64,000 bases of DNA from Escherichia coli. GTDB lineage: Bacteria; Pseudomonadota; Gammaproteobacteria; Enterobacterales; Enterobacteriaceae. The stretch lies in NCBI RefSeq assembly GCF_003334405.1, contig NZ_QOWM01000006.1; one strand, 5' to 3'. Each line of letters opens with the position of its first letter. Positions within the stretch are counted from its first letter, which is position 1. Positions 20,105 to 21,958 of the stretch are shown here, piece after piece. A program made the translations under genes and the position numbers. The notes beneath the pieces were generated by a model, which was given only the letters and a program-made list of their open reading frames with translations, did not search any database and was not told the DNA's origin.

Positions 20105-21958
20105 TTACCTTTCCAGTCTTCTTGCTCCACGTTCAGAGAGACGTTCGCATACTGCTGACCGTTGCTCGTTATTCAGCCTGACAGTATGGTTACTGTCGTT
20201 TAGACGTTGTGGGCGGCTCTCCTGAACTTTCTCCCGAAAAACCTGACGTTGTTCAGGTGATGCCGATTGAACACGCTGGCGGGCGTTATCACGTTGCTGT
20301 TGATTCAGTGGGCGCTGCTGTACTTTTTCCTTAAACACCTGGCGCTGCTCTGGTGATGCGGACTGAATACGCTCACGCGCTGCGTCTCTTCGCTGCTGGT
20401 TCTGCGGGTTAGTCTGCATTTTCTCGCGAACCGCCTGGCGCTGCTCAGGCGAGGCGGACTGAATGCGCTCACGCGCTGCCTCTCTTCGCTGCTGGATCTT
20501 CGGGTTAGTCTGCATTCTCTCGCGAACTGCCTGGCGCTGCTCAGGCGAGGCGGACTGATAACGCTGACGAGCGGCGTCCTTTTGTTGCTGGGTCAGTGGT
20601 TGGCGACGGCTGAAGTCGTGGAAGTCGTCATAGCTCCCATAGTGTTCAGCTTCATTAAACCGCTGTGCCGCTGCCTGACGTTGGGTATCTCGTGTAATGA
20701 CTGGTGCGGCGTGTGTTCGTTGCTGAAACTGATTTGCTGCCGCCTGACGCTGGCTGTCGCGCGTTGGGGCAGGTAATTGCGTGGCGCTCATTCCGCCGTT
20801 GACATCGGTTTGATGAAACCGCTTTGCCATATCCTGATCATGATAGGGCACACCATTACGGTAGTTTGGATTGTGCCGCCATGCCATATTCTTATCAGTA
20901 AGATGCTCACCGGTGATACGGTTGAAATTGTTGACGTCGATATTGATGTTGTCGCCGTTGTGTTGCCAGCCATTACCGTCACGATGACCGCCATCGTGGT
21001 GATGATAATCATCATTGTCATGATGATGATGGTCATGATCGTCGTCGTCCCAGTCGATGCTGCTGAATAGTGCGTACGTGGTAGCAACGCCCATGCTATA
21101 GCCGAATCCGCGTACAAAGCTGTCAACAAACGGTTCTCCGGCTGGTGGTGGCAGATAAACCGGCGGATACGCAGTATTGGCCCAGTTCCCGTAAACCACG
21201 GTTGGGTTGTAGTTGGGAATATAGACCACATCAGGATTGGCGGGCTCAATGGAAATGACGGTTGTTGCCGGCTCTGTAATGACGGGGTTGGCAGTTAAAA
21301 CTGTATTGGATGGTATGACGGGTGCCGTGACTGTCTGTTTTACCGGTACAGCTTTCTTCGTTGTGGTAATAACTTTCTGTTCGGTTGATGACTTCAGCGA
21401 GCCGGTTTGTTGCGCCAGTTGCCGCAATCGCTGTACCGAGTCCATCACGTCCTGCGGCTGGGCCAGAAAAGCATCGCCCAGGTTTTGCACCCATTGCGGG
21501 TTTTCGCCCATCAATGCCATCAATTGTGGAAAGGCCACCAGTGATTTAACGCTGGCGTCCCACGGCTGGTCAGATACCGCCTGAATAGCAGCATCGCCTT
21601 GTTTAAGTGGATTATCGTGCGACCATTGCACTGCTTGAGCAACGTTTGTCGGATAGGTTGATGCCATCAGCACCTGCGAAAGTAGGGCGTCGGGATACAG
21701 CGCGACGGGCGCGACCCATTGATCTATTTGTGCAGTGCTGAATGCGGATTTGACGACGGCGGGTGTTACGGGAGGTGCGGAAACCGTTGCAGGAAACGTA
21801 ACCGCGGCAGCGTCAGACACAGCCAGTTGTGTCGATTGCGGTTCCACAGGCGCTTCCACTGTGCGGCTTTTTATATATAGCCCGGTAGAGGCGGCACAAA
21901 GCCCGGCACTGCAAATTAGCGCCAGCACATGGGGTTTAAACGGCAAAGTCATTTTCAT
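20105..21958 (-). CDS. yacH: Uncharacterised secreted protein YacH (DUF3300-type), His-rich with C-terminal tandem repeats
   Basis: 617-aa ORF with hydrophobic N-terminus, His/Asp-rich block and four 32-aa repeats (..QSASPEQRQAVRE..); recognised as YacH. Confidence 0.85.
   Translation of the reverse strand: MKMTLPFKPHVLALICSAGLCAASTGLYIKSRTVEAPVEPQSTQLAVSDAAAVTFPATVSAPPVTPAVVKSAFSTAQIDQWVAPVALYPDALLSQVLMASTYPTNVAQAVQWSHDNPLKQGDAAIQAVSDQPWDASVKSLVAFPQLMALMGENPQWVQNLGDAFLAQPQDVMDSVQRLRQLAQQTGSLKSSTEQKVITTTKKAVPVKQTVTAPVIPSNTVLTANPVITEPATTVISIEPANPDVVYIPNYNPTVVYGNWANTAYPPVYLPPPAGEPFVDSFVRGFGYSMGVATTYALFSSIDWDDDDHDHHHHDNDDYHHHDGGHRDGNGWQHNGDNINIDVNNFNRITGEHLTDKNMAWRHNPNYRNGVPYHDQDMAKRFHQTDVNGGMSATQLPAPTRDSQRQAAANQFQQRTHAAPVITRDTQRQAAAQRFNEAEHYGSYDDFHDFSRRQPLTQQQKDAARQRYQSASPEQRQAVRERMQTNPKIQQRREAARERIQSASPEQRQAVREKMQTNPQNQQRRDAARERIQSASPEQRQVFKEKVQQRPLNQQQRDNARQRVQSASPEQRQVFREKVQESRPQRLNDSNHTVRLNNEQRSAVCERLSERGARRLER
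20210..20600 (-). repeat. About 96-bp tandem coding repeats within yacH (roughly four units)
   Basis: Repeated nucleotide blocks ...cgcctggcgctgctcaggcgaggcggactgaatgcgctcacgcgctgc... Confidence 0.85.

Follow-up and report, generated by a model that had tools for sequence, protein, structure and literature searches.

The E. coli gene yacH is proposed to encode a Sec-exported envelope protein of the DUF3300 family, in which a putative metal- or pH-responsive loop and an anion-binding tail would serve in envelope stress, a reading to which we give about an even chance. The gene was analysed in a window of 64,000 nucleotides of Escherichia coli DNA (Table 1). The open reading frame (ORF) comprises 617 amino acids, is free of internal stops and is 100% identical to yacH from K-12 derivatives. 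Judged by its sequence it is the already catalogued yacH of E. coli K-12, coding for an envelope protein, and its earlier description was accurate and unsurprising. yacH is one of the K-12 y-genes still without an assigned role and belongs to an uncharacterised family of more than 9,500 representative clusters with no solved structure. Four points may help in testing it, namely a domain end near residue 392, the placement of the His/Asp block as a surface-loop insertion, the three to five natural tail repeats and the loss of DUF2950. Because natural alleles with three to five repeats and with differing loop lengths exist, ready-made variants are available for metal-binding, topology and cationic-peptide assays.

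Table 1. Coordinates of yacH, the segments of its product and the flanking regions in the window.
Feature	Positions	Strand	Basis or remarks
yacH CDS	20105..21958	-	617 codons plus stop codon (20105-20107); ORF list, K-12 identity
aa 1-25, putative Sec-type signal peptide or N-terminal anchor (MKMTLPFKPH / VLALICSAGL / CAA-S)	21884..21958	-	hydropathy; N-termini of relatives
aa 26-74, fast-evolving low-confidence linker	21737..21883	-	pLDDT 48-55; omega 0.6-0.76 between E. coli alleles
aa 75-190, all-helical DUF3300 part, 8 helices; motifs APVALYPD, WDASVKSLVAFP	21389..21736	-	PF11737; pLDDT 93-98; omega 0.03-0.08
aa 191-235, beta-hairpin with hypervariable Thr/Val/Pro-rich loop	21254..21388	-	strands aa 194-201 and 232-239; loop low-confidence
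aa 236-300, conserved VVYIPNYNPTVVYG / YPPVYLPPP, then glycine-zipper-like FVRGFGYSMGVATTYALFSS	21059..21253	-	invariant Y246, P248, Y250, P252
aa 301-336, His/Asp-rich disordered loop, imperfect GAY/CAY triplet run	20951..21058	-	sequence; pLDDT <50
aa 337-392, conserved fold continuation past the Pfam model: NINIDVNNFNRI ... WRHNPNYRNGVPY ... AKRF	20783..20950	-	motif; pLDDT 88-95
aa 393-460, Gln/Arg-rich helical region, two TRD(S/T)QRQAAA copies	20579..20782	-	helices aa 400-415 and 423-439
aa 461-588, four 32-aa (96-bp) tandem repeats, predicted two-helix hairpins, net charge +14	20195..20578	-	sequence, model
aa 589-617, degenerate partial fifth repeat (NNEQRSAVCERL) and basic C-terminus	20108..20194	-	sequence
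Divergent yacH/acnB control region, 354 bp	21959..22312		99-100% conserved in most alleles
Hairpin pair in the 70-bp yacH-lpdA spacer	20043..20092		RNA fold -28.1 kcal/mol, z = -4.0

Domain architecture, export and topology

YacH matches Pfam PF11737 (DUF3300) with an E-value of 1.5e-78, over model positions 2-227 of 227 and hence at full length, on aa 75-333. The family comprises 9583 representatives at E <= 1e-3. A search of NCBIfam with YacH gave no family, and a PDB sequence search returned His-tag and compositional matches only. The AlphaFold2 model of aa 66-392 (pTM 0.85, pLDDT 86) suggests that the domain extends to about residue 392, beyond the Pfam model, as one compact domain that includes both sides of the His/Asp loop. 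Beyond the Pfam model H362 is kept in at least 90% of the aligned sequences, and the motif W.H[NDE][PA]..R..[VA].Y is present in 49 of the 150 representatives listed and in 48 of the 114 scored. Invariant columns of the helical part are A83, A86, L87, D90, W133, G161, Q176, R179 and A182; the most divergent segment between yacH alleles is aa 191-235. The fold appears to be common to DUF3300 members. Foldseek found 918 matches in AFDB50 at E <= 1e-3, the best 50 of them all named DUF3300, 'membrane protein', 'lipoprotein' or yacH, with TMq of 0.73-0.75 to family members of about 40% identity. Proteobacterial DUF3300 proteins (PF11737, usually encoded upstream of PF11453, DUF2950) have in common with YacH the signal peptide, the helical part, VVYVPxYNP, the glycine zipper, W.HNP..R.GV.Y, a basic low-complexity tail and the predicted fold. 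E. coli YacH differs from them by being without a DUF2950 partner, by having a 34-residue His/Asp loop in place of a 4-residue turn and by Escherichia-specific 32-aa repeats in the tail; moreover, its N-terminal hydrophobic stretch has a more membrane-like score than is typical of DUF3300.

The original prediction of a secreted protein with a hydrophobic N-terminus is well borne out. The only strongly hydrophobic stretch of YacH is aa 11-29 (Kyte-Doolittle 19-aa mean 1.91), and this core has Lys residues ahead of it and the small-x-small site CAA-S behind it, as in a secretion signal that may be cleaved near A23/S24. Signal-like N-termini are present in 100 of the 109 full-length family representatives, several DUF3300 relatives carry lipoprotein-type signals, and DUF2950 partner proteins likewise have signal peptides. 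In the AlphaFold2 model, one fold spans the other hydrophobic segment. From these N-termini and the model YacH is very probably exported to the periplasm, where residues of about 70-392 form, according to the model, one compact domain that combines eight helices with a small beta part. Three apparent DUF3300-DUF2950 fusions (P0179, P0130, P0161) were set aside as topology evidence, since they look like frameshift or read-through artefacts; a separate signal peptide is still present on the DUF2950 part of P0130, and Arg/Ala-rich stretches that look out of frame occur in both P0179 and P0130.

A different topology, a single pass through the inner membrane, would have the acidic N-terminal part of DUF3300 exported, the glycine zipper (aa 281-300) acting as a stop-transfer helix and the His/Asp block and basic tail in the cytoplasm, where the polycationic tail might associate with nucleic acid or with the membrane's inner face. 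Across the family the zipper is indeed moderately hydrophobic (median Kyte-Doolittle 1.52; 49 of 114 reach 1.6). Nearly all family members are net acidic ahead of the zipper and net basic in the tail; K+R counts rise from 1.4 over the 60 aa that precede the zipper to 9.0 over the 60 aa that follow, an arrangement in agreement with the positive-inside rule, and some database entries bear the label 'membrane protein'. However, no internal segment of about 19 aa in YacH qualifies as membrane-inserting: hydropathy of the zipper is 0.78 in E. coli, and its Hessa-scale sum is +6.9, against a family median of +3.1 with none at or below 0. AlphaFold2 packs both flanks of the zipper into the same fold and models the zipper itself as short strands, not as a membrane helix, and AFDB models of distant relatives are concordant with it over about 320 of 327 columns, fold evidence that is not decisive because AlphaFold2 ignores membranes. 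The lipoprotein-type signals of several relatives were also judged to fit poorly with an extra inner-membrane helix. Taken with this evidence a single pass is unlikely, and the periplasmic placement of the whole protein is preferred.

The His/Asp loop and putative metal binding

The block IDWDDDDHDHHHHDNDDYHHHDGGHRDGNGW is present exactly as predicted, at aa 301-331; of its 31 residues 9 are His and 11 are Asp. It had been placed at 20991-21060, slightly short at the low end, and occupies 20966-21058. In 41 of 54 relatives the same site is a 4-residue turn. According to sequence and model the block is a disordered, lineage-specific (enterobacterial) expansion of this surface turn and not a separate domain. 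Its length varies by -13 to +14 aa across E. coli, and three unrelated non-enteric lineages (P0129, P0174, P0261) each became enriched in His at this turn independently.

The cluster of His and Asp sits in a flexible part of the protein surface, a loop of pLDDT below 50, on a protein that is very probably exported, and metal binding by the loop is a plausible guess. The exposed loop might chelate divalent cations of the Zn, Ni or Cu type or might titrate with pH. The composition of the loop and the repeated His enrichment of the same loop in several unrelated lineages speak for metal binding. Against a role in metal handling, loop deletions of 13 aa are tolerated, which agrees with low structural constraint as well as with function, and slippage of DNA could by itself maintain His/Asp runs. 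About a dozen genomic contexts of DUF3300 genes contained no metal-related neighbours, and none were seen next to His-rich family members, whose contigs are short. The literature that we found connects yacH not to metals but to envelope stress and cationic peptides. An association with metal homeostasis was absent from these gene contexts and from this literature. The loop resembles the periplasmic His-rich loops of the ZnuA type in being rich in His and Asp, disordered, variable in length and part of an exported protein. Unlike these, it comes without homology (in the PDB sequence search the ZnuA loop came up at only E 6.7, a compositional match), without metal-transport context and without signs of metal regulation.

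Gene neighbourhood and envelope stress

The gene map confirms that yacH is transcribed divergently from acnB, as predicted; the adjacency is real, and nothing was found that links acnB to YacH function. On the other side lpdA follows convergently at a distance of 70 bp in E. coli, in the place where a DUF2950 gene would be expected. The first of the two spacer hairpins lies between an A-run and a U-run and could terminate transcription both ways. A scan for promoter and terminator consensus sequences was uninformative. Scans of the window for CpxR boxes and marboxes were not above chance, and upstream of yacH gave only weak sites with 2-3 mismatches.

A DUF2950 gene stands directly downstream of the DUF3300 gene in L017, the closest syntenic relative, located beside acnB, and in five further loci (L007, L008, L010, L013, L014). 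Co-localisation of DUF3300 and DUF2950 has been described as universal in root-nodule bacteria (PMC4653623). No DUF2950-like DNA was found in 5426 E. coli genomes. The usual follower of DUF3300 genes has been lost from E. coli.

Published expression and mutant data place yacH among the genes that respond to envelope perturbation. Overexpression of NlpE increased yacH 3.87-fold, protamine repressed it, and a yacH deletion mutant survived protamine better (PMC9600279). In a rob truncation mutant yacH changed by log2 -4 (PMC7537768), and ampicillin induced the yacH promoter (PMC8865558). yacH is also listed among the genes affected by the cathelicidin peptide B22, with a value of 1.39 (PMC6737244). 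We infer that the His/Asp loop and the polycationic tail may act together in the envelope-stress network that responds to Cpx and Rob and influences how susceptible cells are to cationic peptides. A more far-reaching version seems quite doubtful to us. It would make DUF3300 a new periplasmic fold and YacH, orphaned from DUF2950, a stress-regulated envelope factor under host or phage selection, with the His/Asp loop as a metal/pH switch that masks or releases the repeat tail, and with alleles and repeat number tuning cationic-peptide susceptibility. The divergence hot spot described below and the protamine phenotype agree with this version.

The C-terminal repeats and length polymorphism

YacH is split in charge, with a pI of 4.7 for the N-terminal part and 10.9 for the tail. 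The C-terminal half is a tail of strongly basic character, with a pI of about 11, one segment of which has been amplified in Escherichia into 32-residue helix-turn-helix repeats. The four predicted repeats are present in register at aa 461-588; the coordinates given for them, 20210-20600, were off and should read 20195-20578. Four copies of the motif SASPEQRQ follow one another at a constant spacing of 32 aa (96 bp). Aligned in register with unit 2, the other three units reach BLOSUM62 scores of 77-131, while the best of 200 shuffles reached 36. On the DNA level the expected near-identity of the 96-bp units applies to units 1 and 2 (85/96 nt, 89%) but not to the remaining pairs (53-71/96 nt, 55-74%). 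With near-identity confined to this one pair, Tandem Repeats Finder reports just 2.5 copies at 88%. The repeat hairpins are modelled as helical with pLDDT 70-89, and the polycationic helical tail might bind anionic envelope material. Upstream of the repeats, a 45-aa duplication within aa 393-460 occurs in some strains (seen in P0001).

Repeat number had been expected to differ between E. coli strains through recombinational expansion and contraction, and it does. In a spread of 60 genomes the repeat span corresponded to four units in 31, to three units in 22 and to others in 7; a five-unit allele is found in P0006. At least two separate events gave rise to these alleles of three, four and five units, with two independent routes to three units. 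Slippage and unequal recombination change the length of the GAY/CAY triplet run and of the 96-bp units in frame, and so give rise to strains with three to five repeats and differing loop lengths. Differences of this kind between strains, in which 96-bp units and triplet repeats are gained or lost in frame, are shared with contingency-type envelope loci. Unlike contingency on/off switches, yacH shows length variants, and frameshifts are rare (one among the 60 sampled E. coli genomes and one Salmonella isolate).

The same variation might also mean that neither the His/Asp block nor the repeat number serves a specific function and that both are by-products of slippage and unequal recombination in a dispensable gene orphaned from DUF2950, tolerated because of where they are located, the one on a surface loop and the other in a flexible tail. 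This is consistent with the wide in-frame length variation without a fixed state, with the imperfect triplet run that encodes the loop, with the missing partner gene and with deletion mutants that grow and do better in some assays. Sporadic inactivation points the same way: an IS1 insertion disrupts yacH in genome H1, the match in H115 is 1 bp shorter (the sole frameshift case in the 60 genomes), and a Salmonella isolate has an 8-bp deletion within the D/H block (PMC10048834). On the other hand, yacH is under purifying selection between E. coli alleles (overall omega 0.07-0.17), which includes the repeats (0.05-0.15) and the loop (at most 0.31). Every one of the 5426 complete E. coli genomes contains a match, and in 5370 of them a single match covers at least 80% of the query. 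Length changes almost always keep the frame, and the independent His enrichment in non-enteric lineages speaks against a mere by-product as well. We consider an origin of both elements without function improbable, and continue to favour a role of loop and tail in the envelope. Relative to its surroundings yacH is a divergence hot spot, flanked by nearly invariant neighbours.

A third explanation would take the repeats as diverged LTXXQ modules of the periplasmic chaperones CpxP, Spy and ZraP, and YacH as a multi-module chaperone with a ZraP-like His-rich segment. ZraP has a His-rich metal-binding tail. YacH shares with these proteins short helix-start motifs (P-L-T/N-Q-Q-Q and S-P-E-Q-R-Q in each unit), basic helical hairpins, a Cpx response and a weak similarity to CpxP: in a single BLASTP comparison aa 440-617 matched the CpxP core with 33% identity over 91 aa (E 0.003), both CpxP LTXXQ motifs align on SPEQ motifs, and the score was reached by 12 of 2000 shuffles. 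Despite this pairwise similarity homology was rejected, as YacH fails the profile and fold tests for membership: Pfam LTXXQ did not match even at E <= 10, a 12-unit repeat profile run against all PDB sequences found generic SPEQ helix caps but no CpxP, Spy or ZraP at E <= 10, the Spy score was reached by 637 of 2000 shuffles and is not above chance, and Foldseek of the full model against PDB found neither CpxP nor Spy, so that common descent with these chaperones is highly improbable. Within the basic C-terminus, K-12 carries Cys604, where the other yacH alleles examined have Arg.

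Identity and surroundings of yacH

The original prediction proved to be a correct description of an already catalogued y-gene. We establish the gene as yacH, which appears among the y-ome genes (PMC12133099), is annotated as 'yacH: DUF3300 domain-containing protein' and was present in 5,426 of 5,426 complete E. coli genomes (megablast), with K-12 derivatives matching the window gene at 100%. Its divergence from acnB was borne out by ORF positions and strands.

Features of yacH and its flanks in the window
Feature	Position	Strand	Remarks
lpdA	18577-20034	+	one flank of yacH
Hairpins of the yacH-lpdA spacer	20043-20092		two strong hairpins in 70 bp; RNA fold -28.1 kcal/mol, z -4.0
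yacH	20105-21958	-	617 codons, uninterrupted (ORF list)
Cys604 codon	20147-20149		SAVCERL
Four 32-aa repeat units	20195-20578		aa 461-588
Domain continuation past the Pfam model	20783-20950		aa 337-392; includes W.HNP.HR.GV.Y
His/Asp string	20966-21058		aa 301-331
yacH/acnB spacer	21959-22312
acnB	22313-24910	+	other flank; transcribed divergently from yacH

The first hairpin between yacH and lpdA, flanked by an A-run and on its opposite side by a U-run, resembles a two-way terminator. In two E. coli loci, L004 (2959-3199) and L005 (2983-3223), this spacer measures 241 bp, a REP-like palindromic sequence being inserted. A genomic SELEX list places a binding site of RpoF (sigma-28) RNA polymerase in the spacer on the acnB side (PMC5493296).

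The DUF3300 fold and its His/Asp loop

Membership of the DUF3300 family is established: this was the sole Pfam match of YacH (aa 75-333, E 1.5e-78). The NCBIfam search found no family, and PDB sequences gave nothing but His-tag-like compositional matches. Among 1.84 billion representative proteins 9,583 relatives were found at E <= 1e-3. Reading their sequences revealed a common plan: after a signal peptide comes an acidic helical region marked by APIALYPD and WDPSV.SLVAFP, then a linker that varies, VVYVP.YNP.VVYG.W.YP.YPP, a glycine-zipper segment (GIGFG.GVA....LWGG.W), a short turn and a (V/I)N(I/V)NVN strand; next is the motif W.HNP.HR.GV.Y, which lies beyond the Pfam model, and last a long basic low-complexity tail, often with a GGGRR terminus.

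Two AlphaFold2-type views of the fold were obtained. The full-length AlphaFold2 model, built with 90 homologues, reached pLDDT 93-98 at aa 70-200 and 230-270 and 93 at aa 360-380, and fell below 50 at aa 309-335, within the His/Asp loop. A second model of aa 66-392 (mean pLDDT 86, pTM 0.85) rendered the glycine-zipper segment as short strands. As modelled, aa 66-392 is one compact unit, and the segments that follow the His/Asp block pack against the remainder of it. AFDB models of relatives at about 40% identity (from Cupriavidus, Pseudomonas and Dyella) gave TM 0.73-0.75, with about 320 of 327 columns aligned. The Pfam DUF3300 model stops at aa 333 and seems truncated, because the conserved, confidently folded domain runs to about aa 392.

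Secretion, as originally proposed, is supported by signal-like N-termini: a hydrophobic core is present in 100 of the 109 full-length representatives, preceded by Lys/Arg in 96, and a few relatives have lipoprotein-type signals. The whole protein would be exported to the periplasm. The main alternative, in which YacH spans the membrane and keeps its tail in the cytoplasm, would suit its charge asymmetry, but the structure models and insertion energetics speak against it.

The predicted His/Asp string, IDWDDDDHDHHHHDNDDYHHHDGGHRDGNGW, is exact. W303 is kept in 87 of 91 aligned DUF3300 members, and the gap from it to the following strand is four residues (GHND, GRGD, GGGN or similar) in 41 of the 54 members in which that strand is recognisable, 34 residues in E. 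coli and 24-38 in three other enterobacterial-type representatives. The block is therefore a surface turn that has expanded in this lineage; an imperfect run of GAY/CAY triplets encodes it. The turn is also His-enriched in unrelated lineages (P0129, P0174, P0261), the best indirect argument for selection on His at this site. Judged from its composition, metal binding by the block is a reasonable guess, and the loop may bind divalent cations or titrate with pH. Metal-related neighbour genes were seen in none of the DUF3300 genomic contexts examined, and the yacH literature yielded no link to metals.

Tandem repeats, length polymorphism and selection

The four tandem repeats stand: SASPEQRQ recurs in register at aa 469, 501, 533 and 565, exactly 32 aa apart, and in-register BLOSUM62 scores of the other three units against unit 2 (77-131) lie far above the best of 200 shuffles (36). 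The description of their DNA as near-identical holds for units 1 and 2 (85/96 nt) but not for the remaining pairs (53-71/96), and because only the former are close in DNA, Tandem Repeats Finder gives 2.5 copies. After the four units comes a degenerate, partial fifth one (NNEQRSAVCERL). The full-length model predicts each repeat as two helices (pLDDT 70-89), and this helical, basic tail might bind anionic envelope material. CpxP/Spy-like modules were considered for the repeats and rejected on failed profile tests. P0129 (L010:1456-3276) is a distant DUF3300 protein whose signal is of the lipoprotein type; it has four tandem repeats (GDARERAREVASNR) of its own in the basic tail, and a His-rich turn of its own. 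Within the family, both tail-repeat amplification and a His-enriched turn have thus recurred independently.

In-frame length polymorphism was established from fetched E. coli alleles and clustered proteins, with a further sample of 60 evenly spaced genomes. Repeat number varies across strains, being three (L001, L003-L005), four (K-12, L002) or five (P0006), which confirms the proposed recombinational expansion and contraction. Three-unit alleles have at least two origins, with unit 2 missing in L001 and L003 and a unit 3/4 hybrid in L004 and L005; the repeats of L002 include a fresh duplicate (90/96 nt). The repeat span in the 60 genomes was that of four units in 31, three units in 22 and 12 bp shorter still in one; five diverged at the 3' end, as the three-unit allele L004 does, and the remaining one was highly divergent. 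The loop is shortened by 13 (L002), 8 (P0050) or 5 aa (P0045) and lengthened by 2 (L003), 7 (P0063), 8 (L005) or 14 aa (P0062). In the same 60 genomes the loop region had K-12 length in 49, +6 bp in six (ST131 included), +24 in one, -39 bp in two and -1 bp in one, and was truncated in one. A third length-variable site lies just upstream of the repeats, where a 45-aa in-frame duplication (APVITRDTQRQAAAQRF...QQQKDA) is found in P0001-P0003, proteins of 662 aa from some E. coli strains.

Outside the signal region, Cys604 is the sole Cys. It is confined to K-12-type alleles, and Arg takes its place (SAVRERL) in every other allele examined.

Strains evidently tolerate occasional inactivation of yacH. 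IS1A interrupts yacH in strain SW071611 (NZ_CM129855.1 4295808-4298438), and the 1-bp-shorter loop region and the truncated match belong to genome matches H115 and H160. In a Salmonella isolate, YacH is cut short by the loss of 8 bp from the D/H block (PMC10048834).

Nei-Gojobori estimates between alleles gave an overall omega of 0.07-0.17 (helical part 0.03-0.08, repeats 0.05-0.15, first linker 0.6-0.76), establishing purifying selection on the whole protein, tail included. Across loci L001-L006, nucleotide identity to K-12 was 89-94% for yacH (lower in AST85) and 97.5-100% for the flanking lpdA and acnB. Between these two nearly invariant housekeeping genes, yacH stands out as a local hot spot of divergence, with dS of 0.11-0.29 vs 0-0.12 for the neighbours in common alleles (neighbours up to 0.19 overall), a gap of which strong codon bias in the highly expressed lpdA and acnB may account for part. 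In strain AST85 (L006:3001-4860) yacH encodes 619 aa, has about 75% DNA identity to K-12 and saturated dS (>2), whereas the lpdA protein is identical and acnB 95.7% identical. It looks like an imported foreign allele, to which the saturated dS points. For comparison, the E. fergusonii orthologue in AFDB (618 aa) has 80% identity.

Loss of the DUF2950 partner and stress physiology

In L008/L009, L010 and L013 the gene immediately after DUF3300 encodes DUF2950, which a local HMM placed downstream in L007 and L014 as well; this co-localisation has been reported likewise (PMC4653623). DUF2950 proteins have signal peptides of their own. P0121, the closest non-Escherichia representative (58% identity), shares with yacH the divergent orientation to acnB and has DUF2950 10 bp downstream. 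At this acnB-syntenic locus, L017 (1046-6484), the order is acnB (divergent), yacH-like, DUF2950, then MFS transporter and LysR-type regulator genes, with no lpdA there. In E. coli there is nothing but the terminator spacer between yacH and lpdA, and a blastn-level search of the 5,426 genomes found no DUF2950-like DNA. This leaves E. coli YacH as an orphan within DUF3300; from the L017 gene order it follows that the E. coli arrangement arose by loss of DUF2950, with a different junction downstream.

In the literature searched, DUF3300 turned up in three papers and DUF2950 in one. YacH may have a part in the envelope-stress network of Cpx and Rob and may influence how susceptible cells are to cationic peptides. 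NlpE overexpression raises yacH 3.87-fold, protamine represses it in a partly CpxR-dependent manner, and a deletion mutant survives protamine better (PMC9600279); a study cited there is credited with its repression by cecropin A. In a rob truncation mutant yacH changed by log2 -4 (PMC7537768), the cathelicidin peptide B22 affected it among other genes (value 1.39; PMC6737244), and ampicillin induces its promoter (PMC8865558). Deletion of yacH also gave a higher yield of recombinant GFP (PMC7376861).
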